DNA of 64,000 nt from Escherichia coli (GTDB lineage: Bacteria; Pseudomonadota; Gammaproteobacteria; Enterobacterales; Enterobacteriaceae), in the NCBI RefSeq assembly GCF_003790525.1, contig NZ_CP033635.1; one strand, 5' to 3'. The notes beneath the pieces are model-generated. The model did no database searches and was not told the origin of the DNA. It worked only from the letters and a program-made list of their open reading frames with translations. How positions within the stretch are numbered: position 1 is the stretch's first letter; the number at the start of each line of letters is the position of its first letter. A program made the translations under genes and the position numbers. This document shows, piece after piece, positions 10,802-51,964 of this stretch.

Positions 10802-12379
10802 ATGACGGAAAACATTCATAAGCATAGCATCCTCATTCTGGACTTCGGTTCCCAGTATACTCAACTGGTTGCGCGCCGCGTGCGTGAGCTGGGCGTTTAC
10901 TGCGAACTGTGGGCGTGGGATGTGACAGAAGCACAAATTCGTGACTTCAATCCAAGCGGCATTATTCTTTCCGGCGGCCCGGAAAGCACCACCGAAGAAA
11001 ACAGCCCGCGTGCGCCGCAGTATGTCTTTGAAGCAGGCGTACCGGTATTCGGCGTTTGCTATGGCATGCAGACCATGGCGATGCAGTTGGGTGGTCACGT
11101 TGAAGCCTCTAACGAACGTGAATTTGGCTACGCGCAGGTTGAAGTCGTAAACGACAGCGCACTAGTTCGCGGTATCGAAGATGCGCTGACCGCAGACGGT
11201 AAACCTCTGCTCGATGTCTGGATGAGCCACGGCGATAAAGTTACCGCTATCCCGTCCGACTTCGTCACCGTAGCCAGCACCGAAAGCTGCCCGTTTGCCA
11301 TTATGGCTAACGAAGAAAAACGCTTCTATGGCGTACAGTTCCACCCGGAAGTGACTCACACCCGCCAGGGTATGCGCATGCTGGAGCGTTTTGTGCGTGA
11401 TATCTGCCAGTGTGAAGCCCTGTGGACGCCAGCGAAAATTATCGACGATGCTGTAGCCCGTATCCGCGAGCAGGTAGGCGACGATAAAGTCATCCTCGGC
11501 CTCTCTGGTGGCGTGGATTCCTCCGTGACCGCAATGCTGCTGCACCGCGCTATCGGTAAAAATCTGACTTGCGTATTCGTCGATAACGGCCTGCTGCGTC
11601 TCAACGAAGCAGAGCAGGTTCTGGATATGTTTGGCGATCACTTTGGTCTGAACATTGTTCACGTTCCGGCAGAAGATCGCTTCCTGTCAGCGTTGGCCGG
11701 CGAAAACGATCCGGAAGCAAAACGTAAAATCATCGGGCGCGTTTTCGTTGAAGTATTCGATGAAGAAGCACTGAAACTGGAAGACGTGAAGTGGCTGGCG
11801 CAGGGCACTATCTACCCTGACGTTATTGAATCTGCCGCATCTGCAACCGGTAAAGCACACGTCATCAAATCTCACCACAACGTGGGCGGCCTGCCGAAAG
11901 AGATGAAGATGGGCCTGGTTGAACCGCTGAAAGAGCTGTTCAAAGACGAAGTGCGTAAGATTGGTCTGGAGCTGGGCCTGCCGTACGACATGCTGTACCG
12001 TCACCCGTTCCCGGGACCAGGCCTTGGCGTTCGTGTTCTGGGTGAAGTGAAGAAAGAGTATTGTGACCTGCTGCGCCGTGCTGACGCCATCTTCATTGAA
12101 GAACTGCGTAAAGCGGACCTGTACGACAAAGTCAGCCAGGCGTTCACCGTCTTCCTGCCGGTACGTTCCGTTGGCGTAATGGGCGATGGTCGTAAGTATG
12201 ACTGGGTTGTCTCTCTGCGTGCTGTCGAAACCATCGACTTTATGACCGCACACTGGGCGCATCTGCCGTACGATTTCCTCGGTCGCGTTTCCAACCGCAT
12301 TATCAATGAAGTGAACGGTATTTCCCGCGTGGTGTATGACATCAGCGGCAAGCCGCCAGCTACCATTGAGTGGGAATGA
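10802..12379 (+). CDS. guaA: GMP synthase (glutamine-hydrolysing)
   Basis: 525-aa translation [40 protein letters not shown]... ends IEWE; immediately downstream of guaB. Confidence 0.95.
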
Positions 12380-12381
12380 TT
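12365..12381. repeat. attL core, 17-bp direct repeat ATTGAGTGGGAATGATT spanning the guaA stop codon
   Basis: Exact copy at 51948-51964; encodes the last guaA codons (I E W E stop). Confidence 0.8.
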
Positions 12382-12427
12382 AACAGCTAACTCATAGCAA
12401 CTCATTCCTATTCAGACACTAATTTAA

Positions 12428-12452
12428 CCCTCTGTTTTTACAGAGGGTTTTT
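12428..12452 (+). terminator. rho-independent terminator after guaA (prophage-side copy)
   Basis: ccctctg ttttta cagaggg hairpin plus T-run; a near-identical hairpin is present at attR (51994-52018). Confidence 0.6.
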
Positions 12453-12514
12453 GTTTTTATGTATTCATTTCTATTCACTCTACACCATATTTTTTGGCGG
12501 TACAGGTGACGGTA

Positions 12515-12529
12515 TTACCTTAAAGGTAT
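12515..12529. promoter_or_regulatory. TTACC-N5-GGTAA palindromic operator-like site (TTACC TTAAA GGTAT), upstream of int
   Basis: Core palindrome TACCTTAAAGGTA; one of ~14 related sites in the prophage. Confidence 0.45.
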
Positions 12530-12571
12530 ACTCTCATACCGTCATGAAAATGGTTTCTATACGGGTGAATT

Positions 12572-13822
12572 GTGCTTACCGATACAAAATTAAAGAACCT
12601 CAAGCCACAGGACAAACTGTACAAAGTTTCCGATCGTGACGGGCTGTATGTAGCTGTGCTTACGTCAGGTACGGTCTCGTTTCGCTATGACTACCGTATC
12701 AACGGTCGCCGCGAAACACTGGTAATCGGGCAGTATGGGCGTGACGGTATCAGCCTGGCAGAAGCGCGAGAAGAACTGATTGCTGCAAAGAAGCTGCTTA
12801 AAGCAGGCCAGTCGCCGGCTGCGGCTAAACGTGACGGTATCAAAAAGATTCGTGGTGCCGAGACGTTTGCGGTACATACCGACAGTTATATGAAACACGT
12901 CATCCTGGCTGAAAGTACCCGCGCAATGAAGCAGGCAGTGATCGACCGTGACATACTTCCTGTTCTTGGCAACAAAATGATGACTGAAATTACCACATCG
13001 ATGGTTCGTGATTTGTGTGACCGGATTGTCGAACGCGGTGGTCGGGCAACAGCAGTACAGGCCAGGGAGATCATTAGCAGCGTATACCGTCACGCCAATG
13101 ACCGTGGTCATGGTTTGTTTAATCCTGCGGCTGACATTAAACCTTCGTCTATCGCCATATTTAAACCACGAGAGCGAACACTGACACCAGAAGAAATTGG
13201 TCTGTTCTTCCGCACGCTGGATGCCATTGGTGCTATGGGCACTATGAAAATGGCTTTAAAGCTGGTGCTTATCACTATGGTTCGTAAAGGCGAATTCACC
13301 AATGCAACGTGGGACGAAATAGATTTTAAAAAATGGACATGGACAATTCCTTCAGACCGCATGAAGGGAAGCCGGGCGCACGTTATTTACCTGCCAAAAC
13401 AGGCACAGGATATATTGGTTGGGTTGCAGATGTGCGCTGGTGGAAGTGAATATCTGGTTCCTGGTCGTTACAATTTCCGGAAGCCATTATCTAATGCCGC
13501 ACTGAACTCTCTGATCGACAGAACGGTGAAAATAATAAATGAAGATGGTGAGCATATTCAGGGCTTCACCGTACACGATATGCGCCGTACAGCCAGTACG
13601 TTGTTGCATGAGGCTGGTTATCCTTCAGACTGGATTGAAAAGGCTCTGGCACATGAGCAGAAAGGTGTGCGCGCCGTATATAACAAAGCGGAATACGCCA
13701 GACAGCGCGCCTACATGTTGCAGCAGTGGGCCGATATGATTGATTCCTGGATTAACGGGGAGCATACGGATCTAATTCCGTTCTCCCCGTCGAAGTTTGA
13801 GAAGTGGATGGCGGGGGAATAA
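12572..13822 (+). CDS. int: tyrosine-type phage integrase (P4-like family)
   Basis: GTG start; N-terminus MLTDTKLKNLKPQDKLYKVSDRDGLYVAV and C-terminal catalytic region VHDMRRTASTLLHEAGY...AHEQKGVRAVY typical of tyrosine recombinases; adjacent to attL. Confidence 0.9.
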   Translation: MLTDTKLKNLKPQDKLYKVSDRDGLYVAVLTSGTVSFRYDYRINGRRETLVIGQYGRDGISLAEAREELIAAKKLLKAGQSPAAAKRDGIKKIRGAETFAVHTDSYMKHVILAESTRAMKQAVIDRDILPVLGNKMMTEITTSMVRDLCDRIVERGGRATAVQAREIISSVYRHANDRGHGLFNPAADIKPSSIAIFKPRERTLTPEEIGLFFRTLDAIGAMGTMKMALKLVLITMVRKGEFTNATWDEIDFKKWTWTIPSDRMKGSRAHVIYLPKQAQDILVGLQMCAGGSEYLVPGRYNFRKPLSNAALNSLIDRTVKIINEDGEHIQGFTVHDMRRTASTLLHEAGYPSDWIEKALAHEQKGVRAVYNKAEYARQRAYMLQQWADMIDSWINGEHTDLIPFSPSKFEKWMAGE

Positions 13823-13825
13823 CGT

Positions 13826-14020
13826 TTAATAGTTCTGCTGATTTTCTTCCATCTCTGCTTCTGCTGCCAGTGATTCAATTTTGTTTTCGAATATTGCTGA
13901 CAGTGTTGCAAATTCAGCATCAGTGACAGCGGGAATTGGAACAAACCTGATCCCGCTGTGTGCAAGCATGTTTGCAGTTTCAAGGCATTTTCTTAAATCT
14001 GCTGGTGATGCCCTGTTCAT
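13826..14020 (-). CDS. small hypothetical protein (64 aa), translationally coupled to the methyltransferase (ATGA overlap)
   Basis: ATG at 14020 overlaps the MTase TGA stop; translation MNRASPADLRKCLETANMLAHSGIRF... Confidence 0.35.
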   Translation of the reverse strand: MNRASPADLRKCLETANMLAHSGIRFVPIPAVTDAEFATLSAIFENKIESLAAEAEMEENQQNY

Positions 14021-14679
14021 GCAGCACGCTCCCGCCCCTGGTTGTCTGTTGGTGACAGCGGAGAATTGCTGAATGCATTTGTTAATCCGCCAATATCCAA
14101 CGCGTATCCAGGGTGTAGTTGCACTGCCGAGTTTTCGCACTGATTACCCCAAACATCGAAGCCATGAGACGACTGGCGGGCGAACAGTTCAATGCGAGAA
14201 ACATCGCCTAACAATTGCACAAGTTTTTCACGAACGACATCTGGTTTTCTTGAGTGCTCAAGCCGCGGTGCGGTAAATGACTGAACGATCCCTGCATTAA
14301 TGCGCGGAGGTAGTTTTCCCTTTACCGCAAACAGGCAATCTTCACTATTGGCGCGGGTCATGTGTCCCATACCCATAACCAGTTTATCTGGTTGTCGACT
14401 ACCACATTTTATCCACGTGAAGCCCTTCATGGTCATAAGACGAAATCCCCAGGCTTCAACAACTTTTAGTGCTTCGAGTGGTTGTGTTGGCACCCACCAC
14501 ATGGCCAACAGACAGTTTTCAGCGGCCAAATCCCACACAGGAAGGCGGCAGATATCCAGCACACTCATAACTGGATATTTAAAACCGGCACCGCGATTAC
14601 CATCTGCGGCTTTGTCCCGGTATACCCAGGGTGGATCTGCATAGATTAGTGTGTATTTCTTAGTCATAAACCACCCCAC
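14017..14679 (-). CDS. DNA N6-adenine methyltransferase, MT-A70 family (orphan, no cognate nuclease seen)
   Basis: DPPW catalytic motif in LIYADPPWVYRD near N-terminus; 220 aa. Confidence 0.8.
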   Translation of the reverse strand: MGWFMTKKYTLIYADPPWVYRDKAADGNRGAGFKYPVMSVLDICRLPVWDLAAENCLLAMWWVPTQPLEALKVVEAWGFRLMTMKGFTWIKCGSRQPDKLVMGMGHMTRANSEDCLFAVKGKLPPRINAGIVQSFTAPRLEHSRKPDVVREKLVQLLGDVSRIELFARQSSHGFDVWGNQCENSAVQLHPGYALDIGGLTNAFSNSPLSPTDNQGRERAA

Positions 14680-14959
14680 AACATCCTATGCCGCCATAGT
14701 CGCCACGGCGAAGGCCGTTACCTTTTGTGATACATTGGTCCCTGCGAACCGCGATCCTTGCACGCTCAACATCACCAGAAGCAACATCCATACACTGAAG
14801 CCAAAGGTGAGCGGCAATGCGGAACTGCCCTTTTTTCTCTCTTTCAATCGCGCGTTTTTCGATCTCTATCGCCGCAGGAGTAACGGCGACAATCTTTGAC
14901 GGACTGCGCATTGAAACCTTGTTCATGTGATATTTTTCAAGTCGGCTTAACTTTCTCAC
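14660..14959 (-). CDS. hypothetical protein overlapping MTase start (true start uncertain)
   Basis: ORF in operon context between alpA-like gene and MTase; no recognisable motif. Confidence 0.3.
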   Translation of the reverse strand: MRKLSRLEKYHMNKVSMRSPSKIVAVTPAAIEIEKRAIEREKKGQFRIAAHLWLQCMDVASGDVERARIAVRRDQCITKGNGLRRGDYGGIGCCGVVYD

Positions 14960-15068
14960 TTAATCCAACCCTCTCTGAAAATTAATGCCAGCAGATAAAG
15001 CCATGCTGAAACAGAGGCCAGGAATAAGTACCATCCTGACCATTTGCTCCAGTGCCTTAGCAGCACAC

Positions 15069-15317
15069 TCATGCAGCGTTGCTCACAGGACGATATACAC
15101 GTTGCTGAACAGGAGGCTTTTTACCCTGGAACTCTGCCGGGCTTGCTGCCTGACGTTCATCAAGCCAACGCTCAACTTCATCACGGTTCCATGCGCAGCG
15201 TTTATCGGTGATATACCAGCGTTTAGGAAATTCCCCTGCGCGCTCCATACGGTCGATAGTGCTCCATGACAGTGGCACCACCGCCAGGAGTTCCTTCTTA
15301 CCTAATGCACCTTTCAT
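15069..15317 (-). CDS. AlpA/excisionase-like small DNA-binding protein
   Basis: 82 aa; LLAVVPLSWSTIDRMERAGEFPKRWYITDKRCAWNRDEVERWL resembles AlpA/Xis-type HTH proteins. Confidence 0.65.
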   Translation of the reverse strand: MKGALGKKELLAVVPLSWSTIDRMERAGEFPKRWYITDKRCAWNRDEVERWLDERQAASPAEFQGKKPPVQQRVYRPVSNAA

Positions 15318-15366
15318 AAATACCTCTCTTGGTTGCAGTGCGGCGCGCGTGGCGCCGCGGTGGTGG

Positions 15367-16248
15367 TTACATAGATGTTTCGTTTAATTCTTCCCGACGA
15401 ACGCTGTAAACGTCGGTGGCTTTTGCCAGCAGTTCGTCATCATCTGAAAGTTTTTGTGCAATGTATTTGTAAGCCTTATCCAGTTCGGAGACAGTGCTGT
15501 AATTCATCGCTGCGCTGGTAAAGGCCATCAGCATTTCTTCTGGCTCACGGCTATCCGCTTTACGCGTTTGCTCATCAGGCTTTTTCACTGATTTAGCGTT
15601 GATCAGACTGTTCATTCCCGCAGCCGTAGTCATTTGCGGAGTAATGTCTCGCTCAACGCGCGGTGCCGTTTCCTGTAATTCGTCAGGGGTGTAAACACCG
15701 AGAAGTACATCAGGAGCGTGCAGGCGAGCCCATCGTTTCGTGCAAAGATATGCAAGTTGCTGGCGCGGATCCTGTTCCCACAATGGAGAGTTACGCACTC
15801 CTGCTTGCGCCATACTGATGGTAAGCTCACGTGGTTCTGCTTCTCCTTTAAGAACTGCTGACACAGTTACCGTCAGATTCGGTGATTTATCTGTTTTGCC
15901 GTTAACATTCGACCAGTCACCGCTCCAGCGATAATTCAGGCGTGTCGCCAGCAGGCTGGAAGAGGATACGACCGCGTTTACCAACTGTGCTTCGTAGCCT
16001 AACGTTCCGTTTACCACATGCGTTTTCTGCGCCACGGCGAAAGGGTTCATTCCCCACTGTGCCGCCTGCATGGTCACCGCCAGGCAATCGGCAGGTTTGC
16101 CTTCAAGATGTTTCGGTACAGTCGCTTTGCTTTGTGACATCAACTCCGCGAAACGCACCAGTTGATTCATACCCTCGGGGCTGAAGATTGCAGCAGCAGT
16201 GCCTACAGTTGCGCCTGGTTGTGATGTGATTGCGATATCATTGCTCAT
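15367..16248 (-). CDS. RecT-family single-strand annealing recombinase
   Basis: 293 aa; position immediately downstream of and coupled (ATGA overlap) to the exonuclease gene; RecT-like sequence. Confidence 0.75.
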   Translation of the reverse strand: MSNDIAITSQPGATVGTAAAIFSPEGMNQLVRFAELMSQSKATVPKHLEGKPADCLAVTMQAAQWGMNPFAVAQKTHVVNGTLGYEAQLVNAVVSSSSLLATRLNYRWSGDWSNVNGKTDKSPNLTVTVSAVLKGEAEPRELTISMAQAGVRNSPLWEQDPRQQLAYLCTKRWARLHAPDVLLGVYTPDELQETAPRVERDITPQMTTAAGMNSLINAKSVKKPDEQTRKADSREPEEMLMAFTSAAMNYSTVSELDKAYKYIAQKLSDDDELLAKATDVYSVRREELNETSM

Positions 16249-17066
16249 ACGTACATATCCTGTTTACGTGCCCAGTCAGGGCGTTTAATAATTTCCACTC
16301 CGCCCCATTCATCGTTGATGCGGCATTCGTGATAGGTATTCAGATCCCGGCGGAACAGAGCGTGCCCGGCATCGACATCCTGCGCATCCAGCTCGAACAC
16401 GCGTACCGGATACCGACCACAATCAATGCTTTCGCTCACGGCAAGAAAGAAAAAACCATGCGGCTGACCAGTAACCATCATTGCGCCTTCGCGGTACATT
16501 GCGTCCTGCACGTGGTAGCGGAATTCCTCGATGTGGCGTGCAAAACGGTCCATATCTGCAACCTTTTTCACGTCGACGATCACGTTGTGCTCGTTCAGCC
16601 ATTTGTCTGGACGAATTCGGCACAACTCCCCCGTCTCTTCATCGTTCCAGTACATTGATGCTTCGCAGTAACCAGGTGCTTCCAGCATCCAGCGTGCCGC
16701 CGGGTGAGCCATTGCGCTATCACGCATCAGCTCCAGTTTCCGCCACTGCTCGGCATCAAGTACCGTAATCCCCATATCCGCCACATCACGAAGAAATTCC
16801 TCTTCGTCAGCTTTACCTTGTTTCGTCCGACGATCGAATTTCGGTGAAACAATGAAGCGTTTGTCGAACTCTCCAGGCTCCAGAAGCAGACAGTGCAATG
16901 CGGTTCCCATATCCAGTGCAGACTTTTTCTCTTCGTCTTCTGGTGCTGCCTGAACCCATTTAAGAAGCGCCGGATTCTTGGCAACCATGTCCAGTTGCGA
17001 CTTACTCACGCCGTCACCGGCGTGGTAGTCTTCGTTGCTGATGTCGAAATAAATTCCCGGTTTCAT
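16245..17066 (-). CDS. phage recombination exonuclease (RecE C-terminal / PD-(D/E)XK-like)
   Basis: 273 aa; MKPGIYFDISNEDYHAGDGVSKSQLD... N-terminus typical of this exonuclease family; partner of RecT. Confidence 0.7.
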   Translation of the reverse strand: MKPGIYFDISNEDYHAGDGVSKSQLDMVAKNPALLKWVQAAPEDEEKKSALDMGTALHCLLLEPGEFDKRFIVSPKFDRRTKQGKADEEEFLRDVADMGITVLDAEQWRKLELMRDSAMAHPAARWMLEAPGYCEASMYWNDEETGELCRIRPDKWLNEHNVIVDVKKVADMDRFARHIEEFRYHVQDAMYREGAMMVTGQPHGFFFLAVSESIDCGRYPVRVFELDAQDVDAGHALFRRDLNTYHECRINDEWGGVEIIKRPDWARKQDMYV

Positions 17067-17362
17067 GCCGCGTCCCTCTGCCCATCAAGCTGATCAGCCA
17101 GATCCCAGCGGGCGATAATTGCCATTGCCTCGCGCCGGTAGGCATCCATTAGTTCTTCGAACTCAGGGCTGTCTTTAGCGGCCTCCAGTACTTCCTGGCG
17201 AACGCCTTTAACTGTTACAACGTCGAAAGTTGATGCCAGTTGATGAAGCCGGATACTCTCAATCAGTTCAACTTGTCGGTCATATAGCTGTTCTGACAGA
17301 CGGTAGTCCTTGTCGAATGCCAGCATGATTTTTTGAAGATTTTTCTGCTGATTAACGTTCAT
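17063..17362 (-). CDS. hypothetical early protein (start MNVNQQ)
   Basis: ATGA overlaps with flanking genes; SD GGGAGGG upstream. Confidence 0.4.
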   Translation of the reverse strand: MNVNQQKNLQKIMLAFDKDYRLSEQLYDRQVELIESIRLHQLASTFDVVTVKGVRQEVLEAAKDSPEFEELMDAYRREAMAIIARWDLADQLDGQRDAA

Positions 17363-17364
17363 TA

Positions 17365-17517
17365 TCAGCCCTCCCATATCTCGTTATCGTTGGCCACATC
17401 GCGAGCTTCTTTGCTGACGAAAGCCCACTTAATGCCTTCCTGTAAGGTGCGGAACTTCCAGCTCATGAATCCGCATGCAGTAACGCAGTACCAACCGTTG
17501 ATGATTTTCCACTGCAT
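17365..17517 (-). CDS. small Cys-containing early protein (50 aa), first gene of leftward early operon
   Basis: ATG 17517 with SD GAGGTAA; MQWKIINGWYCVTACGFMSWKF...; not in ORF track (<60 aa). Confidence 0.3.
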   Translation of the reverse strand: MQWKIINGWYCVTACGFMSWKFRTLQEGIKWAFVSKEARDVANDNEIWEG

Positions 17518-17670: not shown

Positions 17671-18255
17671 TTATTGTTTGTTTTTTTCGTTCTGGTTGAT
17701 GACAAATTCAATGTAACTTTCGATCTTTGCTTTCTCGGTTTCGGGTAACAATGCGTAGCGCGAGCGATCATAGTTGATGGTCGCAGGGTCATGCGGATGA
17801 ATCAGTAGTTCATATCCGTGACGCCCGAATGCAGATGCAACATTCTCCAGGGTGGAAATGGAAACGCTGACCTCATTGTTTAACAGGCGGCTTATTGTCA
17901 CCTGGGCGACGCCGGATGCGCGGTGAAGTTTTCCCTGAGTTGAAAGGTCGCGGCTTTCACTCATCCAGCGTTCCAGGTTGTGAGCCGCCAGCTGACCTAT
18001 ATCACTCGGGCCGACAGGCTGAAAACCCTCCTGAGAAAGCGAGCGATCAATATCAAGCCAGTTACGGGGTTTATTGGCGGCAGCTTCAATTTTTCGCGCA
18101 ACCTGGTCGCCGATAACCTTCTTGCCAAGAGCCCAGCGGTTTACCAGATTTGCCTGAGTTCCAAGTTTTTCTGCCATCCGCGTCTGAACACCATTGAATT
18201 CACGGTCGATCAAGTCGTTGAGATTTTGCCTGCGGACGTCCTGGATACTTTTCAT
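17671..18255 (-). CDS. putative immunity repressor with two HTH regions, no S24 peptidase domain
   Basis: 194 aa; HTH-like segments TRMAEKLGTQANLVNRWALG and ASGVAQVTISRLLNNEVSVSISTLENVASAF; divergent from cro-like gene across an operator cluster. Confidence 0.6.
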   Translation of the reverse strand: MKSIQDVRRQNLNDLIDREFNGVQTRMAEKLGTQANLVNRWALGKKVIGDQVARKIEAAANKPRNWLDIDRSLSQEGFQPVGPSDIGQLAAHNLERWMSESRDLSTQGKLHRASGVAQVTISRLLNNEVSVSISTLENVASAFGRHGYELLIHPHDPATINYDRSRYALLPETEKAKIESYIEFVINQNEKNKQ

Positions 18256-18310
18256 TTTCTGGAAAATCGCCTCATATATGAATCAGTAGATGATTCAATT
18301 TAAAGCAATA

Positions 18311-18325
18311 TTACCCAACAGGTAA
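18311..18325. promoter_or_regulatory. operator-like site 1 of 3 in repressor/cro intergenic region (perfect TTACC CAACA GGTAA)
   Basis: Palindrome in divergent promoter region. Confidence 0.55.
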
Positions 18326-18327
18326 AT

Positions 18328-18342
18328 GCACCTCATGGGTAA
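18328..18342. promoter_or_regulatory. operator-like site 2 of 3 (GCACC TCATG GGTAA, one degenerate half)
   Basis: Adjacent to site 1. Confidence 0.35.
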
Positions 18343-18358
18343 CTATCCTTGATTTTTG

Positions 18359-18373
18359 TTACCTTATGGGTGA
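18359..18373. promoter_or_regulatory. operator-like site 3 of 3 (TTACC TTATG GGTGA), overlaps putative rightward promoter
   Basis: Possible -35 TTGATT at 18349-18354 and -10-like GAATAT at 18372-18377. Confidence 0.4.
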
Positions 18374-18409
18374 ATATTTATTATCTGAAATAAATATCAG
18401 GCAATAGCT

Positions 18410-18640
18410 ATGAGCGATAACGGACATTTCGATTTCAAAAAGCACTGGCTTGCACTTACTCCGGATGAGCGTGAAGCCTTCGCACAGGAAGCCGGAACGA
18501 CGAGTCACTATATCCAGACTCACTTAACAGGTAAGCGCAAAATGCCAGGTAAAGTATTGATGAATGGGCTTTTTAAAGCCTGTAAAACAAGACAATGGCT
18601 GCGCTCAAAAGCAGAACTGGCATACTTCTTCTACTCATGA
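18410..18640 (+). CDS. Cro-like small regulatory protein
   Basis: 76 aa; divergent from repressor; MSDNGHFDFKKHWLALTPDEREAFAQEAGTTSHYIQTHLTGKRK. Confidence 0.5.
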   Translation: MSDNGHFDFKKHWLALTPDEREAFAQEAGTTSHYIQTHLTGKRKMPGKVLMNGLFKACKTRQWLRSKAELAYFFYS

Positions 18641-18788: not shown

Positions 18789-19001
18789 TTGAAGATAGTA
18801 ACCAGAATGGAGGCCGCAAAAGCCGGGTTAAATCGCTATTTCACAGGAAAGCGGTGCCGTCACGGCCATCTCTCTGAAAGGTATGTTCTGAACGGAACAT
18901 GTGTTGAATGTGCAATGAATAGCGCCAACCGCCATCGTAATGAATTTGCTTGTGCACTAAAGAGTGCAAGAGGGGAAACCTATGGCAAGCAGCTGGATTA
19001 A
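18789..19001 (+). CDS. small Cys4 zinc-ribbon protein (hypothetical), alternative start
   Basis: CRHGH...CVEC pattern; start codon uncertain (TTG). Confidence 0.3.
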   Translation: MKIVTRMEAAKAGLNRYFTGKRCRHGHLSERYVLNGTCVECAMNSANRHRNEFACALKSARGETYGKQLD

Positions 19002-20560: not shown

Positions 20561-20597
20561 TACCAGCGCGATAGCGCATTTTTTTACGCCTTGATAA

Positions 20598-20612
20598 TTA
20601 CCTGTAGGGTAA
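20598..20612. promoter_or_regulatory. TTACC-N5-GGTAA operator-like site (perfect)
   Basis: TTACC TGTAG GGTAA. Confidence 0.5.
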
Positions 20613-20659
20613 CAAAATATTCTAAACTCTATTGATTTCGTGTCTTATGTGGTTTTTAA

Positions 20660-20674
20660 TTACCTCAGAGGTAA
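20660..20674. promoter_or_regulatory. TTACC-N5-GGTAA operator-like site (perfect), ends 4 nt before ATG 20678
   Basis: TTACC TCAGA GGTAA; GAGGT half doubles as SD. Confidence 0.5.
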
Positions 20675-20677
20675 ATC

Positions 20678-21022: not shown

Positions 21023-21083
21023 ATCGACGATCTTTTTAGTTATCAATGTAATCAATAAGTTATGTGGATAAGCGAGGGTAAAG

Positions 21084-21808: not shown

Positions 21809-21914
21809 GCAATATCGACAAGCGGCCTCTACGTGACAAGCTGTCACCGTATGACACAGAAGAGATGCTTGAGGCTATGCGTATTTTTCTGTAAGAACAG
21901 GGAGGTGAGCAAAA

Positions 21915-41979: not shown

Positions 41980-41984
41980 ATTAA

Positions 41985-44459: not shown

Positions 44460-44468
44460 GGAACAACA

Positions 44469-44882
44469 ATGAAGGAATTATTGCTGTTATCGGTATTTTT
44501 GATATCCGCTTGCTCGACATCCTATGATGTTTATGACGGTGTTGATAAGGCATATTGCGACAAAGTTAAAATGGATTTTTCTCTTGCCAAGACGGCGAAG
44601 GATAGTTGTATTGATCACTACGTCAAGACTTATACCAAGCCAGCCTCATCGGCATCTGATATTGCTGAAGGTGCTGTGTTTGAGTGTAACAAGGTGATAT
44701 CCATCGCAGCGAGTTCTTCATACGATGCTGCTGTATGTGCAATGGCTGAAAGAAACGGCATGTCAGTGCAAAAAATTAATAGCATGATAAGCAGTAATGA
44801 CGAAGCCAAAATAAGAACTGATATCAGCTCGGTGAAAAAAGATGCCATGAACAGAGTTGTAAAATATCAGTCATCTTTATAA
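44469..44882 (+). CDS. lipoprotein (candidate superinfection-exclusion/cargo)
   Basis: Signal peptide with lipobox LISAC; low GC; followed by terminator. Confidence 0.5.
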   Translation: MKELLLLSVFLISACSTSYDVYDGVDKAYCDKVKMDFSLAKTAKDSCIDHYVKTYTKPASSASDIAEGAVFECNKVISIAASSSYDAAVCAMAERNGMSVQKINSMISSNDEAKIRTDISSVKKDAMNRVVKYQSSL

Positions 44883-44885
44883 GTC

Positions 44886-45152: not shown

Positions 45153-45175
45153 ACAAAAAAGCCCGCAGCGCGGGC
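45153..45175 (-). terminator. rho-independent terminator after two-gene cassette
   Basis: gcccgc agcg cgggc hairpin with T-run on minus strand. Confidence 0.5.
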
Positions 45176-45615
45176 TATTCTTCTTCATCATTAAAAAGCG
45201 GATTGTTGTTTCCATCTGATGAAAGGAAAGGTATGTGTTCTCTTGAAAATCCAACAATGACAATTTCATTATCATTTTTTGCATAATGAATGCATTCATT
45301 AGAATGCCTTCCGCCAGGGTTGAAATTTAAGTTAATGGTATAATTCTTAAATGTGTTTGGATACCATGTTGGCCCACAATGATAATGCCAATAATTCTCT
45401 TGCTCATAATTGTCTGAGCCGGGAATTTTATCATGGTTATCATCAACCCACGAGGGCTTGTTTTTTCCAACAAGCGCCCTTCCATTGGCAACATCCTCTA
45501 AAAAACTTTGTATGATTTTTATTTCATCATCAGTAAGGAAAGGTCCGTCTACAGCGAAAGGGGTGTTGCTTTCCCCATGTAGAAAACTATTAGATATTCT
45601 AATGTTAAACTTCAA
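45175..45615 (-). CDS. hypothetical ~147-aa protein, downstream gene of two-gene cassette (candidate toxin/effector)
   Basis: TTG start with SD AGGAG 6 nt upstream (an in-frame ATG at 45756 has no SD and overlaps the upstream gene); contains WHYHCGP and GGRHSNECIH segments; low GC. Confidence 0.4.
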   Translation of the reverse strand: MKFNIRISNSFLHGESNTPFAVDGPFLTDDEIKIIQSFLEDVANGRALVGKNKPSWVDDNHDKIPGSDNYEQENYWHYHCGPTWYPNTFKNYTINLNFNPGGRHSNECIHYAKNDNEIVIVGFSREHIPFLSSDGNNNPLFNDEEE

Positions 45616-45635
45616 GGAAAACTCCTGATGTGCTT

Positions 45636-45803
45636 CTATTTGGAGCGAAATGCCGCCTTGAAGTCGCTGAAAGATGTTCCTGTCTGGTAAACCATATCCT
45701 TGTCGCGCTCTTTGCTTGCGCGGCCAAGCATAACTTTTCCAATGACATCCCAGCATTGCTTGGCTTGTTCATTGTGCTGAGTACGATTTTTCAACGCTGT
45801 CAT
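45636..45803 (-). CDS. hypothetical 55-aa protein, upstream gene of two-gene cassette (candidate antitoxin/regulator)
   Basis: ATG with SD AGGAGG; MTALKNRTQHNEQAKQCWDVIGKVMLGRASKERDKDMVYQTGTSFSDFKAAFRSK; not in ORF track (<60 aa). Confidence 0.4.
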   Translation of the reverse strand: MTALKNRTQHNEQAKQCWDVIGKVMLGRASKERDKDMVYQTGTSFSDFKAAFRSK

Positions 45804-45902: not shown

Positions 45903-46592
45903 TCAGAAGAACCCAGCCTTGTCGTTGATGTACTCCGCGTGGGTCTGGATATCACGCAGGCATTTGCTCACACCAACAATGTAGCAGAACATGGTGGTCA
46001 GCTCCGCCGCCGCGCCCGATACGTCGTGCCCGTCTTCCTGTAACTGGTTCAGCAGATTCATCAGCAGTGAGTTCTCCGTCAGGCCGAGAACACCAGACGG
46101 AGAATGAATCAGGCTGCGGTAGCCGGGCTTCAGTGGGGCACTGTAGGTTTTGTTCTCTATCTTCATTGCCTGCATCACTGCTGATGCTGTGGCGTTGGCT
46201 ACCTGGTCGGCAACTATCTTTATGCGTTCTTCCTGCGGGAGCGAGTTTTTAATGTAACTTCCGGTGCGGCGGATCTGAGGAAGAACCTCACCTGTAACCC
46301 ATTTACGAAAGCGGTAGGGGATAGTGCCTGGTGTCACTGCGTCGCGGCAGCGGAGGATCAGTGTGTAGAGGCCTGACTCGTTGATAATATTGGTTTCACC
46401 TTGACGGCCTAAGTTAAATTTAGCCCTTTCATCATCATCAAGAGATTTTATTGACATAGTGGGGTTTGTCAGTTGAAGAGCTTTAATAACGTCTTTGGCA
46501 ACAAACCAAGGATTTCCATCAATAACAATGGCTCGAATGGTGGCTTCTGATTCAAAATGAAAAACAGATGGGGTTACGTTAGCAGTCATAGT
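45903..46592 (-). CDS. Bro-N domain protein (antirepressor-like)
   Basis: Start MTANVTPSVFHFESEATIRAIVIDGNPWFVAKDVIKALQL typical of Bro-N/KilA-N-type N-terminus; SD AAAGGTGAT. Confidence 0.55.
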   Translation of the reverse strand, partial: TMTANVTPSVFHFESEATIRAIVIDGNPWFVAKDVIKALQLTNPTMSIKSLDDDERAKFNLGRQGETNIINESGLYTLILRCRDAVTPGTIPYRFRKWVTGEVLPQIRRTGSYIKNSLPQEERIKIVADQVANATASAVMQAMKIENKTYSAPLKPGYRSLIHSPSGVLGLTENSLLMNLLNQLQEDGHDVSGAAAELTTMFCYIVGVSKCLRDIQTHAEYINDKAGFF

Positions 46593-46855
46593 GATCACCT
46601 TTGTAGTTAGGTTAATCACCACTACCGACGCCAATCGGTTGGTGGTGAACTGTGCAGGGTTGGCGTAACCGGCTACAAAGGACCCGGCGCACCTTTCGGT
46701 GCCCCCACACAGCCCACCATAGAATAGGTGCGCTTTACACATAAAAAAACCGCTTATGCGGCATATGTGCCTCTGTAGTAACCCGGGACGCCAATCCCGG
46801 CACTGGATTTTGCCAGTGCCCGATTACTATGGCACAAGAGGAGTGCGATGTAAAT

Positions 46856-47354: not shown

Positions 47355-49544
47355 ATGACGGTCTCAACCGAAGTTGACCACAACGAATACACCGGTAACG
47401 GCGTTACGACATCATTTCCGTATACCTTCCGTATTTTCAAAAAAACCGACCTGGTTGTTCAGGTGTCTGACCTGAACGGGAACGTAACAGAATTGGTTCT
47501 GGATACCGGTTATAAGGTAACTGGAGCGGGCACTTATAGTGGCGGTGAAGTGGTTCTCCAGTCGCCGCTTGCTGCTGGCTGGCGAATTACGATAGAGCGT
47601 GTGCTTGATGTGGTGCAGGAGACTGATCTTCGCAATCAGGGAAAATTTTTCCCCGAAGTTCATGAAGATGCATTTGACTACCTGACGATGCTGATCCAGC
47701 GATGTTTTGGGTGGTTCAGACGTGCATTGATGAAACCATCTTTGCTTGCAAAATATTACGATGCAAAGCAAAACAAAATTTCTAACCTTGCAGATCCATC
47801 ATTTGAGCAGGACGCTGTAAATAATCGCTCAATGCGTAATTATGTCGATGCTGCAATCGCCGGGGTTGTTGGTGGTTTTGGTTGGTTTATACCGTCAGGA
47901 AGCGGGGCAAGACAACGAACATTTCAAAGCAAAATGAGGGATATAATTTCTCCTTGTGATTACGAAGATAATATTTTTATGATTAAGGAGTTGATATCCA
48001 AAGGCAAAAATGCCGCTGTTTTTAACTCATATTATACTTTTGTTATTACTGTTGGCGAATGGGGTGATTTCCCTACACTCAAAGATGCAATCATTGCAGC
48101 CCAGTCAATGAGACCTATGTGGGATGGTGGTAATGCTTTCTGCGAAATAAGAATTAAGACCGGGCATATTATCAACTATCAAATTGAATTCAGTTCAGGT
48201 GTTGATTTGTCTTGGATTAAAATAACATCAGAAGACTCAGTGGTTTTCTCTGACACTCGTTTGTTTACTAAAATCGTTAGAACGTATTACGAATACAAGT
48301 ATTTATTTTACATTTGCGATGCAGCAAAAAGTCCTGTATTTGCTATTCAGATCGAAGAAAATAGAGATGATAGCGATGTTTGTGCATTTATTGTAACTCA
48401 AAAAGCTGAACTTAATTTCTATCCGTATTCAGGTGCTCGAAAGTTCTACGTTGGAATTCATGGTAGTTTTGGTGCAAAAATTAGTGCATATCATACCGGA
48501 TGTGCTCCTGATGAGGAAAGTGTTGCTGCATATATGCCAGAAGGGTATTACGTATGTGATTTTTCTTATAGCAGATACTCTTCCCTGCAACTGGTAAATA
48601 ATGTCAAGGCATCAATGCCTGTAAGCAAGTTTGAACGGTGCACAGAGAGTACGGTTGCGTCAGTTAATTGTATTTATAATGTTAAAGCAGATTTTCAGGG
48701 GTCAAGTGCAAGCTATTGTTATATAGGATGGAATGTAAGAGATGGTTCAAATGTTAATATACGCGACCATAAAACTATACATTGCTCATATCGTGGATTA
48801 ACCTGCATTCATACAGCATATGTTGATGCAAGACGACATGACGTTGAAGAAAGTGATGCAGAAACAAGTGGTAAAGTCCTTGAACCAAATATTGAAAAAG
48901 GTTTTTATGGATGTGCACTTGGTGTGCGTATTGATGGTGCGGGTTGCGTTGATGTTGCTGGTAATGATATGCGCAATTGTGGAACAGCCGTTAATGCAGA
49001 CACTGGTGCTGTTATTTCAGGAAAGGCTGTAGATATCTCAGGGGCTGAGCTGGGATTTGATTGCCATGCAGGAGCATCTGTTAATTTTCCAAGGCTATGG
49101 GGTACAGATATAAAAAAATTAATGCACCTCCAAGATGGTGTAAGGTTTAACTCTAATATTTGTCATGTATTTGGTGCAAATCCCACAAAAGATATTAGAT
49201 GGATTGATGTAGAGAGATCTGAAGCTTCTTTTATGAATGCAACGCTGGATGCAGATTCAGGATTTATTGCCGACTGTGGTAGTAGGATAACCATTGAAGG
49301 AAGTAAAGTTAAAAACCAAACAATAAGAAGTTTTTTTGGATCATATGTGGCTATAAATAATACTGTTGCTGACAGAACTTATTCAGATATAGCCGATGTT
49401 CCGCAGTTGACTATTAGTGGAGGATCTTTTATTTCTGCTACAGGATATTCTAATTCTGACTCCAGCCCTCTGAGGTTGAGCACAACACGAAATACACTTG
49501 GCGTTGGAGGAGCCATATTTTCAACCAATGGGGAAGTTTCATGA
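47355..49544 (+). CDS. tailspike/tail fiber protein
   Basis: 729 aa; conserved-looking N-terminal particle-binding region then AT-rich C-terminal region with repetitive beta-rich sequence. Confidence 0.65.
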   Translation: MTVSTEVDHNEYTGNGVTTSFPYTFRIFKKTDLVVQVSDLNGNVTELVLDTGYKVTGAGTYSGGEVVLQSPLAAGWRITIERVLDVVQETDLRNQGKFFPEVHEDAFDYLTMLIQRCFGWFRRALMKPSLLAKYYDAKQNKISNLADPSFEQDAVNNRSMRNYVDAAIAGVVGGFGWFIPSGSGARQRTFQSKMRDIISPCDYEDNIFMIKELISKGKNAAVFNSYYTFVITVGEWGDFPTLKDAIIAAQSMRPMWDGGNAFCEIRIKTGHIINYQIEFSSGVDLSWIKITSEDSVVFSDTRLFTKIVRTYYEYKYLFYICDAAKSPVFAIQIEENRDDSDVCAFIVTQKAELNFYPYSGARKFYVGIHGSFGAKISAYHTGCAPDEESVAAYMPEGYYVCDFSYSRYSSLQLVNNVKASMPVSKFERCTESTVASVNCIYNVKADFQGSSASYCYIGWNVRDGSNVNIRDHKTIHCSYRGLTCIHTAYVDARRHDVEESDAETSGKVLEPNIEKGFYGCALGVRIDGAGCVDVAGNDMRNCGTAVNADTGAVISGKAVDISGAELGFDCHAGASVNFPRLWGTDIKKLMHLQDGVRFNSNICHVFGANPTKDIRWIDVERSEASFMNATLDADSGFIADCGSRITIEGSKVKNQTIRSFFGSYVAINNTVADRTYSDIADVPQLTISGGSFISATGYSNSDSSPLRLSTTRNTLGVGGAIFSTNGEVS

Positions 49545-49837
49545 TTAAGAGCATTGATGTCACTCCATTTCTTCACTCGCTTTGCGCTTTTGCGGCTCAG
49601 GTACTGGTTGGTATTTTTACCGGAAACTGGGCTTACGGTGCGATAGCCGGTTGTACGTTCTTCATTGCGCGTGAACACACCCAGGCAGAATATCGCTGGA
49701 TAGAAAAGTTTGGGAAAGGGAAACGTATCAACATGCCGTGGTGGGGAGGTTTTGATCCACGCGTGTGGGATGTGGGAAGTCTGTTGGATTTTGCTGTTCC
49801 TGTTGTTTTTTGTTTTTGTGTTTATTTCTCTATTTGA
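49541..49837 (+). CDS. small membrane protein (holin or serotype-conversion candidate)
   Basis: 98 aa with hydrophobic segments; ATGA overlap with tailspike stop. Confidence 0.35.
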   Translation: MIKSIDVTPFLHSLCAFAAQVLVGIFTGNWAYGAIAGCTFFIAREHTQAEYRWIEKFGKGKRINMPWWGGFDPRVWDVGSLLDFAVPVVFCFCVYFSI

Positions 49838-50030
49838 CTGCTACCGCGCCATTAAATGGTGCGGTATTCAACCTGCTCTTCACTGTTTGTTTCTTCAGAG
49901 TCATGTAAAAGGTGAGCTTTATTCTCGGCATGAAAAACAGGGAATTGACGATGTTAAAGTAACAAAAAACCATAAATGGTTTATTATGCGTAATGCTTTA
50001 CTGTTCAGGAGGTTGTTATGCATATAAACG

Positions 50031-50444
50031 GTGGAAAACATGTCAGCTCAACTAACCAGTGAAACTTTAAATCAGTGGCTTAGCATGAGTTCTCTGGCGG
50101 CGGTGATAGCAGGAGTTCCTCCTGAGGTTGCTTTGGGTGCTTTGGCTGGAGCGGTAATTTTTGTTACCTCTGCAGTAGAGTACCCCATCCGTCGCCGGGT
50201 GCTCCTGTCGATGCTCAGCTTTCTTTGCGGCCTTCTCTTTTACAAACCAGCAGCATCAATTCTTATCGGCATAGCCAGCCTGATCCCTACCATCACGCAG
50301 GACTCTTTTGAAAAAGGGATTGTTTTCTCTGCAGGCGCATTCGTGTCAGCAATTGTCGCTGTGCGTATTGGTATATGGCTCTATCACCGTTCCGATAATC
50401 CACGCGAGTTAATTCCGGGGAGAAAAGACGATGGTAACGCATGA
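50031..50444 (+). CDS. membrane protein, holin-like
   Basis: 137 aa, multiple TM segments, immediately upstream of lysis genes. Confidence 0.4.
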   Translation: MENMSAQLTSETLNQWLSMSSLAAVIAGVPPEVALGALAGAVIFVTSAVEYPIRRRVLLSMLSFLCGLLFYKPAASILIGIASLIPTITQDSFEKGIVFSAGAFVSAIVAVRIGIWLYHRSDNPRELIPGRKDDGNA

Positions 50445-50739
50445 GTTTTTTTTGCTTATCACCAATGCAGTTATTTGCACTGGCATAGCAATTCGCGTTG
50501 TCACATTCCGGCGTAACGGCTCTCAACACCGAAGGTGGGGAGGATGGCTTGCTTATTTCCTGATTGTTGCTGCGGCCAGTATTCCTGTTCGTGTCGCCTA
50601 TGCAATCTGGTTACGTACGCCAATGGCTGTGGATTTATCTGAGGTCATTATCAACGCTGTCATGCTAGCTGCGGTTATTAAAACGCGCGGTAACGTCGTT
50701 CAAATTTTCAAAGTATCGAGGTCTAAACATGGAGATTAA
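50431..50739 (+). CDS. membrane protein, holin-like
   Basis: 102 aa, about 3 TM segments, directly precedes endolysin. Confidence 0.45.
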
Positions 50740-51358
50740 ACAATTCCAGCGAGCTGCTGGTATCAGCGAGGCACTGGCCGCACGCTGGTTCTCGCATATA
50801 ACTTCTGCGATGAAAGAGTTTGGTATCAGCAAACCAGAAGATCAGGCTATGTTTATTGCTCAGGTCGGGCATGAGTCTGGAGGCTTCACCCGGTTGCAGG
50901 AGAATTTCAACTACAGCGTCAGCGGACTGGCTAACTTTGTTCGGGCTGGGCGTCTCACTCAGGGACAGGCCAACGCATTGGGGCGACGTGCAGGCGAACC
51001 ACCATTGCCACTTGAGCGCCAGAGAGCGATTGCCAATCTGGTGTACAGCAAACGCATGGGGAACAATGCCCCTGGTGATGGCTGGAACTACCGTGGGCGC
51101 GGGCTTATCCAGGTTACCGGTTTGAATAACTATCGTGACTGTGGAAACGGTCTTAAGGTTGACCTGCTGGAGAGTCCTGAACTGCTGGCGCAGGACGAAT
51201 ACGCGGCTCGTAGCGCGGCGTGGTTCTTTGCCAGCAAAGGATGCATGAAGTATACCGGCGATATTGCACGTGTAACTCTGATTATCAATGGTGGCCGGAA
51301 CGGCATCGACGACCGGCGCGCGCGATACATCAATGCCAGTAAGGTGCTGGCGGTATGA
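50729..51358 (+). CDS. endolysin, glycoside hydrolase family 19 (chitinase-like lysozyme)
   Basis: [12 protein letters not shown] and [16 protein letters not shown] motifs typical of GH19 phage endolysins. Confidence 0.75.
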
Positions 51359-51837
51359 TCTGGGCATTCGTAAAAGCATACTGGAAACAGTTGGTTATCA
51401 TGGCGATGCTTGCTGTTCTGGTCATATCAGGAGTTGTAGCCTGGAATGCACACGGTAGTCGTCAGTACGACGCCGGGTATGCGCAGGCGGAAGAAGACCG
51501 CAAAGACGAAGAAGACAAAGTTCGTCAGTACTACGAACAGGAGAAAGTGACCAATGAACGTGAAGCGCAGCAAAGAATCGACCAGGCGCGCAATGATGCT
51601 CTTGATGCTGCCGCTCGCGCTGGCAGGTTGCAGCAACAACTCTTTGCCATCCGTGAGCAGCTCAGGCAGTATAACGCCATTGTCGGCGCTGGGACGTCAG
51701 CCGCAGACACCGGAGTTTTGCTTGCCGACGTGCTCAGCAAATCTCTCGAGAGAAACAGACAACTGGCAGAGTATGCTGACCGGGCAGCCGAAGCCGGAAG
51801 AGTCTGCGAAAAACAGTACGACACCCTGACCAGATAG
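51355..51837 (+). CDS. Rz-like i-spanin
   Basis: N-terminal TM segment plus coiled-coil periplasmic domain; follows endolysin. Confidence 0.6.
51554..51829 (+). CDS. Rz1-like o-spanin lipoprotein, embedded in a different frame within Rz
   Basis: Lipobox LALAGC followed by Pro/Ser-rich sequence; fully nested in 51355-51837. Confidence 0.55.
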   Translation: MNVKRSKESTRRAMMLLMLPLALAGCSNNSLPSVSSSGSITPLSALGRQPQTPEFCLPTCSANLSRETDNWQSMLTGQPKPEESAKNSTTP

Positions 51838-51947
51838 CATGGTATTTTTCATGGCACTGATTTCCGGTGACGGTATATAAAACGGTACGGGAAAAGTTGA
51901 GCTTTGGAAAAATGTTATCACTCAATTGGTTATGGTGTCCGTGAATA

Positions 51948-51964
51948 ATTGAGTGGGAATGATT
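51948..51964. repeat. attR core, 17-bp direct repeat ATTGAGTGGGAATGATT
   Basis: Exact copy of 12365-12381. Confidence 0.8.

Follow-up and report, generated by a model that had tools for sequence, protein, structure and literature searches.

The 39,583-bp unique insert (39.6 kb) at the 3' end of guaA, within the 64,000-nucleotide stretch of Escherichia coli DNA that we analysed (the window), is a temperate podovirus prophage of the genus Uetakevirus, the group of epsilon15, phiV10 and vB_EcoP_ZX5 (ZX5), with a probability of about 0.96. Prophages of this kind are ordinary and well described in E. coli, and the sole oddity of this one is a one-base deletion in terL, the gene of the terminase large subunit. 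The original prediction, made from the letters of the window, had proposed an epsilon15/phiV10-like prophage flanked by att repeats, with a duplicated terminator and a gene content that looked complete apart from a possible terminase frameshift.

Attachment site, guaA and the two terminators

The predicted 17-bp direct repeat, ATTGAGTGGGAATGATT, is exact and unique: our search found two copies in the window, both on the + strand, where none is expected by chance. It takes in the end of guaA, namely its four final codons (I-E-W-E) and TGA stop, and two bases beyond; the final codons had rightly been placed inside it. The features of the two junctions are as follows.

10802–12379, + strand: guaA (GMP synthase), 525 aa, intact; last four codons and stop within the att core
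12365–12381, + strand: attL core ATTGAGTGGGAATGATT, from the repeat search and the published attP/attB core
12426–12452, + strand: phage-borne intrinsic terminator, P' arm; downstream of guaA and upstream of int in the lysogen
12506–13093, both strands: cluster of candidate integrase arm-type sites (GTGACGGTAT motif)
12572–13822, + strand: tyrosine integrase with P4-type arm-binding domain, 416 aa (PF13356, PF22022, PF00589)
51867–51876, + strand: predicted integrase arm-type site GTGACGGTAT, P arm, by motif match
51948–51964, + strand: attR core ATTGAGTGGGAATGATT, from the repeat search and empty-site reconstruction
51993–52017, both strands: bidirectional host terminator between guaA and yfgI, from folding; present in the K-12 empty site

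At position 12381, the homology to genomes with an unoccupied site breaks off. When the sequence up to this position was joined to that from 51965, the product gave a single collinear alignment with guaB-guaA-yfgI-yfgH-yfgG-pdeF of K-12 (5884 nt, 97.4%), and a 160-nt stretch across the junction matched naturally empty sites, for example in E. coli SMS-3-5, at 100% identity. The comparison proposed with the original prediction, that of both junctions with an uninterrupted guaA-yfgI locus, thereby yielded a clean empty site, and the insertion does interrupt this adjacency. The same guaA-integrase junction is present in 567 of 5426 complete E. coli genomes (about 10%). In the free genomes of ZX5, phiV10, HEMP4 and epsilon15, attP runs from the right-end phage sequence of the window through the core into its left-end sequence, and the attP region includes the phage-borne terminator. 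The cores at attL and attR are identical, attB is restored cleanly by the flanks, and free phages carry a clean attP. The same 17-mer is the attP/attB core of phiV10, epsilon15 and ZX5, and integration of ZX5 at the guaA 3' end was demonstrated by PCR and Sanger sequencing (PMC9782041). The prophage site is this published, already known site.

The integrase gene starts 191 bp past the attL core, and its product, in which arm-binding, central and catalytic domains were found, is 99.3% identical to ZX5 Int and 87% identical to epsilon15 Int. The motif GTGACGGTAT, annotated as integrase-binding in the epsilon15 record, is exact at 12506, 12741, 12831 and 13084 (− strand) and has one mismatch at 12536 (− strand); of its six exact copies in the window, five are no more than about 720 bp away from one or other att core. 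Candidate arm-type sites, as judged by motif, are therefore located on both sides of the core, and the AlpA/Xis-like gene at 15069–15317, a candidate excisionase, encodes a protein with 85% identity to gp33, the annotated excisionase of epsilon15.

The guaA gene differs from that of K-12 by two substitutions, with an identical C-terminus. Because the exchange falls inside identical sequence, its reading frame is kept in full. The phage had been thought to supply a replacement 3' end of guaA; this is true of the 3' UTR and terminator, which alone were replaced, but not of the coding sequence, which is unchanged.

Folding confirmed the phage terminator copy at its predicted position (12428–12452), with a hairpin of 10-bp stem (−15.9 kcal/mol, z = −6.0) followed by TTTTTGTTTTT. 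The same terminator is annotated in the phiV10 and epsilon15 records and present in free ZX5 and HEMP4 genomes. The host terminator (12-bp stem, −17.8 kcal/mol; each strand folds at about −18 kcal/mol and has a T run) was missed by a simple terminator scan because the stem uses up part of the T run, and was clearly shown by folding. It lies displaced at attR as predicted, but one base from the predicted coordinates (51993–52017, not 51994–52018). The string CCCTCTG-N6-CAGAGGGTTTTT occurs in the window solely at these two terminators, and both have the GC-rich hairpin and U run of rho-independent terminators, at which termination is predicted. The host terminator now stands after the phage lysis genes and still serves yfgI, while the phage terminator probably shields the integrase gene from guaA read-through.

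In the mechanism that we propose, the P4-type tyrosine integrase would have carried out recombination between the phage attP and the attB over the guaA end, which share the core ATTGAGTGGGAATGATT. Past its stop, guaA would read into phage DNA, where the phage terminator, whose stem is that of the host terminator, would end the transcript; the original bidirectional terminator would have been left at attR, with the phage lysis genes on one side and yfgI on the other. The CI-like repressor would maintain lysogeny, with the C4 antisense RNA and isrK ahead of the antirepressor gene as a putative second layer of control.

Phage modules and relatives

The left part of the prophage carries the early, immunity and replication genes, and an antirepressor module lies in the right part.

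13826–17517, − strand: early-left operon, DUF1382 protein to RecE-like exonuclease, plus small ORFs
14017–14667, − strand: MT-A70 adenine methyltransferase, in this operon
14660–14959, − strand: PerC-like activator, in this operon
15069–15317, − strand: AlpA/Xis-like excisionase candidate, in this operon
15367–16248, − strand: RecT, in this operon
16245–17066, − strand: RecE-like exonuclease, in this operon
17671–18640, both strands: immunity switch, repressor and divergent Cro-like gene
17671–18255, − strand: CI-like repressor, 100% identical to ZX5
18410–18640, + strand: Cro-like gene, divergent from the repressor, 100% identical to ZX5
18982–24764, + strand: replication and accessory region, including a DUF1064 protein and a variable ead/Ea22/DUF551 accessory block
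18982–19812, + strand: DnaT-like initiator
19784–20560, + strand: P-like helicase loader
24423–24764, + strand: gp49-like regulator
45903–46819, − strand: antirepressor module (isrK-like RNA, C4 antisense RNA, Ant gene)
46743–46819, − strand: isrK-like RNA (RF01394, 74.7 bits against a threshold of 50)
46638–46724, − strand: C4 antisense RNA (RF01695, 79.5 bits against a gathering threshold of 45)
45903–46589, − strand: Bro-N/Ant gene (phrog_130), directly downstream of the C4 RNA

The C4 RNA lies upstream of the ant gene on the same strand, as in an immI region of P1/P7 type. The accessory segments 21242–22473, 23248–23662 and 23879–24425 are not in HEMP4, and 21242–24425 in its entirety is not in ZX5.

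The virion, tailspike and lysis genes are listed below.

28481–44459, + strand: virion module, gp3-like protein through internal or ejection proteins, including gp5-like and gp9-like proteins
28702–30381, + strand: portal, 100% identical to ZX5
30677–31372, + strand: protease
31387–32373, + strand: major capsid protein, matching epsilon15 cryo-EM chain 3j40_A
32425–32862, + strand: cement protein
33259–33582, + strand: gp10 staple, matching epsilon15 cryo-EM chain 3j40_N
33582–36658, + strand: tail tube proteins A and B
36658–44459, + strand: internal or ejection proteins, a transglycosylase among them
47355–49544, + strand: tailspike, 729 aa; the N-terminal 200 aa are the conserved head-binding part
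50040–51837, + strand: lysis cassette
50040–50444, + strand: gp23-like membrane protein or holin
50431–50739, + strand: holin
50729–51358, + strand: GH19 endolysin, the type predicted
51355–51837, + strand: Rz
51554–51829, + strand: Rz1, embedded

Each backbone gene of ZX5, a viable phage, is full length and in frame here with the exception of terL, in agreement with the predicted completeness. The receptor-binding part of the tailspike is subgroup-specific (HEMP4, MS 198-1), and a Pfam search with the tailspike returned nothing significant. The tailspike is followed by membrane proteins as predicted, namely the 98-aa protein and two holin-type proteins, but these are not O-antigen-modifying genes.

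The remaining features comprise a tRNA and variable genes.

26947–27765, − strand: AT-rich single-gene cargo (moron) adjoining terL; hydrophobic N-terminal part and long coiled coil
27988–28064, − strand: tRNA-Arg (anticodon TCT), conserved in related prophages
44469–44882, + strand: lipoprotein-like cargo ORF (lipobox LISAC, GC 0.39), not in HEMP4 or ZX5
49541–49837, + strand: 98-aa membrane protein, co-inherited with the receptor-binding part of the tailspike

The likely true start of the terL-adjacent cargo gene is 27741, giving 264 aa. In a large protein collection its product matched only 'hypothetical protein' entries, from Enterobacteriaceae. Its PADLOC matches to DndD, PbeC and LmuB (E 3e-5 to 2e-4) were rejected as weak coiled-coil and composition artefacts, and the sole further PADLOC match was the expected methyltransferase. 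Pfam gave nothing significant for this protein, the lipoprotein-like ORF, a 193-aa ORF at 45175–45756 or the 98-aa membrane protein, to which no family was assigned, and NCBIfam gave zero matches for ten right-arm and cargo proteins. The slot by the tailspike holds just the 98-aa membrane protein, and a search of the prophage for homologues of epsilon15 gp21, gp22 and gp28 and of phiV10 oac found none of these serotype-conversion genes. O-antigen modification is not to be assumed here, unlike in epsilon15 and phiV10. The membrane proteins of the variable slots are reasonable, though unproven, candidates for superinfection exclusion.

For membership of a genus, the ICTV requires a genome-wide nucleotide similarity to a classified member of at least about 70%. 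Coverage multiplied by identity was 0.88 for HEMP4, 0.79 for ZX5, whose record says Uetakevirus, and about 0.58 for phiV10. Collinear homologues of 33 of the 44 epsilon15 proteins are present at 27–96% identity, with the same gene order and homologous virion, lysis and integration modules. This whole-prophage comparison with epsilon15 and phiV10, which the original prediction had suggested, places the prophage in Uetakevirus by nucleotide, protein and capsid-chain matches and upholds the epsilon15/phiV10-like assignment.

HEMP4 (OR424387, an unannotated record) is the best overall match, covering 90% of the prophage at 97.5% identity with the same tailspike and lysis region; it lacks the cargo genes 26950–27800 and 44464–44884 and parts of the accessory block, and its terL has six Gs at the site of the deletion (G6). 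ZX5 (MW722083) has a collinear backbone with 95–98% nucleotide identity over 81% of the prophage and the same 17-bp attP core and guaA 3' end site. It differs in the receptor-binding part of the tailspike and the next gene (47891–50015), the ead/nin-like block (21242–24425), the cargo gene by terL (26950–27801), the region after gp17 (44460–44884) and the antirepressor (82% identical), and its terL is intact with G6. phiV10 (NC_007804) shares the attP core, the terminator between Rz and int, and the backbone (at about 96% identity, with coverage of 42% in the left half and 79% in the right), but has the O-acetyltransferase gene oac after an O157-specific tail fibre, whereas the prophage has no oac and a different tailspike. 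Epsilon15 (NC_004775), the type member of the genus, has the identical 17-bp core, an equivalent terminator, the GTGACGGTAT arm motif and the same gene order. In contrast, much of its genome is related at the protein level only; its serotype-conversion genes (gp21 polymerase, gp22 inhibitor and gp28) have no homologue here, its RecT/RecE module is of a different type, and it lacks the tRNA-Arg and the Ant/C4 module.

Among prophages, that of E. coli 702/18 (NZ_CP074701.1) is 99.958% identical and gapless over window positions 1–21522, which cover the host flank and the left 9 kb, but differs in the accessory block, the terL allele (96.2%, G6) and the gene in the terL-adjacent cargo slot. None of the complete E. 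coli assemblies matches the whole prophage, and the best match changes genome by segment. Over the whole length, similarity to the nearest phage record reaches only about 88%, and relatives therefore cannot reveal how the variable cargo behaves. We encountered no evidence contradicting the prophage reading.

The terminase reading frame

24805–25479, + strand: terminase small subunit, 100% identical to ZX5 TerS from 24886
25476–26950, + strand: terminase large subunit (terL), frameshifted; the frame as sequenced stops at 25745

The possible terminase frameshift of the original prediction is borne out by the letters of the window: the run at positions 25573–25577 reads GGGGG (G5), compared with GGGGGG in relatives, a one-base deletion. 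Adding one G restores a 491-aa frame 98.7% identical to ZX5 TerL. The G5 allele was found in 2 complete genomes, compared with G6 in about 80, and is thus rare; the same call is present in two other assemblies on unrelated terL backgrounds. The NCBI annotation pipeline (PGAP) labels both G5 copies 'frameshifted'. A programmed frameshift was rejected because relatives have a plain uninterrupted frame, as was re-initiation at GTG 25571, since no ribosome-binding site precedes it. Homopolymers are a typical place for sequencing errors, and because the single-base deletion sits in one, the functional state of the prophage is uncertain; a real inactivating mutation and a homopolymer sequencing error are of nearly equal probability.

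The chances are about even that the prophage is genuinely defective, with a real slipped-strand deletion in terL that blocks packaging and leaves it locked, in early decay, and kept for its cargo or not yet lost. The frameshift is present as sequenced, G5 is rare (2 versus about 80), as a deleterious mutation should be, the rest of the assembly is clean, and no other G or C run in the 64-kb window would reach the six bases of the restored G6, a plausible slippage hotspot. However, there is no second lesion. None of the integrase, repressor, replication, virion and lysis genes is shortened, which puts any inactivation in the very recent past, and a base-calling error would explain the same letters.

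Such an error, with a true G6 and a fully functional prophage inducible like ZX5, is a serious contender, at slightly under even odds. The deletion falls in a G run, one G restores the near-identical TerL frame, every gene except terL is intact, and two other assemblies have G5 on unrelated terL backgrounds, a pattern expected of recurrent errors, although recurrent real slippage accounts equally well for this. Moreover, a run of five to six bases is short for a systematic homopolymer error, and the alignment with strain 702/18, with zero gaps across 21.5 kb, indicates an indel-clean assembly.

It is very unlikely, though consistent with G5 on three unrelated terL backgrounds and with the sole G or C run of that length in the window, that the G6, near the terL start, is a recurrent slipped-strand hotspot through which Uetakevirus prophages integrated at guaA lose packaging and possibly regain it. 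In that case the lysogen would be naturally locked and retained for its cargo, which would be the membrane coiled-coil protein by terL, the lipoprotein encoded past gp17 and the tailspike-linked small membrane protein. There is a negligible probability that the element is a phage-like island, a satellite or an assembly chimera flanked by the repeat by chance. The broken terminase gene is the sole support for this, whereas the insert forms a complete phage genome, collinear with those of a characterised genus and equipped with capsid, tail, lysis, replication and immunity genes of its own; the identical junction is shared by hundreds of complete genomes that are independent, and the matching attP is present in virions isolated from close relatives.

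We therefore return to a Uetakevirus prophage at the guaA 3' end. If the G5 base call is right, it could presumably excise, replicate and lyse the cell, but not package DNA, and it should be labelled possibly packaging-defective until the terL G run is verified in reads. The value of our results is mainly for annotation, as they provide the exact boundaries of the prophage, an undamaged guaA, and a characterised genus with a published attachment site.

Attachment site and terminators at guaA

The prophage is bounded by two copies of the 17-mer ATTGAGTGGGAATGATT on the same strand. A search of the 64-kb window found exactly these two copies, where none is expected by chance. The features of the two junctions are as follows.

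12365-12381: attL core
12428-12452: phage-borne terminator separating guaA from int, with a T run after the hairpin (-15.9 kcal/mol, z = -6.0)
51948-51964: attR core
51993-52017, both strands: host terminator at attR, likewise a hairpin and T run (-17.8 kcal/mol)

The core takes in the four final codons of guaA, its TGA stop codon and a further two bases, confirming the original prediction of an exact direct repeat that includes the final codons of the gene. The cores at both junctions are identical and guaA is left intact: its 525-aa product differs from that of K-12 by two substitutions and has the same C-terminus. Joining the flanks (...12381 to 51965...) gave a single collinear alignment with the K-12 locus (5884 nt, 97.4%), where the gene order is xseA, guaB, guaA, yfgI, yfgH, yfgG, pdeF; as predicted, the insert breaks the guaA-yfgI adjacency. 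A 160-nt stretch across the joined junction matched natural unoccupied sites end to end at 100% identity, for example that of E. coli SMS-3-5, and the homology of the junction probe to unoccupied genomes ended exactly at 12381. The uninterrupted site was found in 4571 of 5426 complete genomes, and the guaA-integrase junction of the window in 567. Since the joined flanks restore a clean empty site and the junction is shared by so many genomes, the prediction withstood this test, and the site is commonly occupied.

The attP core of Escherichia phage vB_EcoP_ZX5 (ZX5, MW722083) is attgagtgggaatgatt, 190 bp upstream of its integrase; the same 17-mer is given as the attB core at the guaA 3' end, attB, attL and attR were confirmed by PCR and Sanger sequencing, and the authors describe the attP of phiV10 (NC_007804) and epsilon15 (NC_004775) as the same sequence (PMC9782041). 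guaA has also been reported as the insertion site of TL-2011b (PMC3293862). The free phage genomes (ZX5, phiV10, epsilon15 and HEMP4, OR424387) carry the core between the right-end and left-end sequences of our prophage, with the terminator on the left-end side. Three domains are recognised in the integrase: Arm-DNA-bind_3, central and catalytic. The 10-mer GTGACGGTAT, annotated as integrase-binding in the epsilon15 record, is found six times without mismatch in the window; five of these copies lie within about 720 bp of either core, on both arms, as candidate sites. An inverted repeat, CACTCAAT ... ATTGAGTG (51920-51955), brackets the att core on the P-arm side and the attP of ZX5, phiV10 and HEMP4 contains it too; its two halves may form a pair of core-type binding sites.

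The phage's own terminator copy is present as predicted, and is annotated in the phiV10 and epsilon15 records. The host terminator is indeed retained at attR, one base lower than the predicted 51994-52018. Both have the stem CCCTCTG/CAGAGGG and the T tail in common and differ only in the loop, and this composite pattern has no third occurrence in the window. The common stem suggests that the phage copy may have descended from a bacterial guaA terminator, which fits the general rule for integrating phages, namely that they bring a replacement for the displaced gene end. The phage terminator would end guaA transcription and keep read-through out of int, while the host terminator would now also halt transcription leaving the phage lysis operon. 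Since the latter folds equally well on both strands, the convergent yfgI is predicted to be still served.

Phage identity and gene content

Megablast against phage records gave HEMP4, TL-2011b, vB_EcoP_ZX5, PAS61, phiv142-3 and phiV10 at 96-98% identity; coverage times identity in a local comparison was 0.878 for HEMP4 and 0.791 for ZX5. Homologues of 33 of the 44 epsilon15 proteins occur in the same order. PHROG assignments describe a complete temperate podovirus genome: integrase, adenine methyltransferase, PerC-like activator and AlpA/Xis-like protein; RecT and a RecE-like exonuclease; CI-like repressor and Cro-like protein; DnaT-like initiator and P-like helicase loader; an ead/Ea22/DUF551 accessory block; small and large terminase subunits; portal, protease, capsid, tail tube and internal virion proteins; and tailspike, two holin-type proteins, endolysin and Rz/Rz1. 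The capsid protein and a small staple protein matched the epsilon15 cryo-EM chains 3j40_A and 3j40_N, the capsid protein being nearer still to 3j4u (Bordetella phage BPP-1 according to the epsilon15 record). The endolysin matched 4ok7 at E = 1.7e-116 (Salmonella phage SPN1S endolysin according to the same record) and, more distantly, GH19 chitinases. These comparisons uphold both the assignment to an epsilon15/phiV10-like podovirus and the GH19 endolysin.

Cargo, tailspike region and RNA elements

Between terL, the large terminase gene, and the portal gene lies a tRNA-Arg (TCT). Other features are listed below.

26947-27765, minus strand: AT-rich single-gene cargo (GC 0.36) between terL and tRNA-Arg
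44469-44882, plus strand: lipoprotein-like ORF (GC 0.39, lipobox LISAC) after gp17, the last large virion gene
45175-45756, minus strand: low-GC ORF (0.39; phrog_5954, unknown function) downstream of ant
46638-46819, minus strand: C4 antisense RNA (RF01695, 79.5 bits) and isrK-like RNA (RF01394, 74.7 bits), from Rfam
49541-49837, plus strand: 98-aa membrane protein (phrog_1443), the sole gene between tailspike and lysis genes

Parts of the accessory block, the cargo gene and the lipoprotein-like ORF distinguish the window from HEMP4 and ZX5, both of which lack the last. The cargo protein combines a hydrophobic N-terminal part with a long coiled coil and has no match in Pfam or NCBIfam; its homologues, usually of 264 aa, are "hypothetical" across Enterobacteriaceae. 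A different gene occupies this slot in E. coli 702/18 (NZ_CP074701.1, with a related prophage at guaA), ZX5, epsilon15 (gp50) and VE-V11-M (Gp49 family). The lipoprotein-like ORF had no significant family match, and the phrog_5954 ORF matched neither Pfam nor the YafO-family toxins. In some related prophages, a gene in that region is labelled a YafO-family toxin by the NCBI annotation pipeline (PGAP).

The slot after the tailspike holds O-antigen-modifying genes in epsilon15 and phiV10; in contrast, it holds the 98-aa membrane protein in the window, where no homologues of the epsilon15 serotype-conversion proteins gp21, gp22 and gp28 or of phiV10 oac were found. This protein, with no Pfam match or family assignment, is co-inherited with the receptor-binding part of the tailspike (47891-50015). 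The membrane proteins predicted after the tailspike are therefore present, refined to this protein plus the holin-type proteins.

The C4 and isrK-like RNAs form a tandem pair immediately upstream of the Bro-N/Ant antirepressor gene (45903-46589), on the same strand. In P1 and P7, the C4/ant arrangement governs antirepressor synthesis. By analogy, C4/isrK/ant looks like a second immunity layer of the P1/P7 immI type in a podovirus prophage.

Terminase frameshift and probable recombination

ZX5 proteins of the common backbone have full-length, single-frame counterparts at 82-100% identity, TerL excepted, so that the prophage is complete apart from the terminase frameshift that had been suspected. 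The coding sequence of TerL (25476-26950, plus strand) changes frame near codon 30 because the run at 25573-25577 has one G fewer, GGGGG (G5) instead of the GGGGGG (G6) of 702/18, HEMP4 and ZX5; inserting one G restores a 491-aa open frame. Probes centred on the run found G5 in two complete genomes and G6 in about 80. Both G5 copies (at about 3014 in their loci, L004 and L005) have the same one-G loss and are marked frameshifted by PGAP. The three G5 alleles share only 90-97% identity and are no nearer one another than to G6 alleles; therefore, the change, or miscall, arose independently. Judged from these alleles, the run is a recurrent hotspot either for slippage or for base-calling error. 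Over 21.5 kb, the window aligns with 702/18 without any gap, and all G and C runs in the window are shorter than six. We consider a real mutation and a base-calling error in terL about equally probable.

Window 1-21522, made up of the host flank and 9 kb at the left end of the prophage, is 99.958% identical to 702/18 (nine mismatches, gapless). In contrast, the middle of the prophage has other cargo and a terL allele of only 96% identity. This sequence pattern suggests that strains otherwise almost identical have recombined within the prophage. Within the flank, window 1-7684 is taken up by the greater part of a giant adhesin gene (about 8 kb), which lies downstream of sinH and the SinI-family gene.

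The observation and interpretation in the original prediction are right. The element is an ordinary representative of a prophage family that is well described, and it sits at the attachment site already published.
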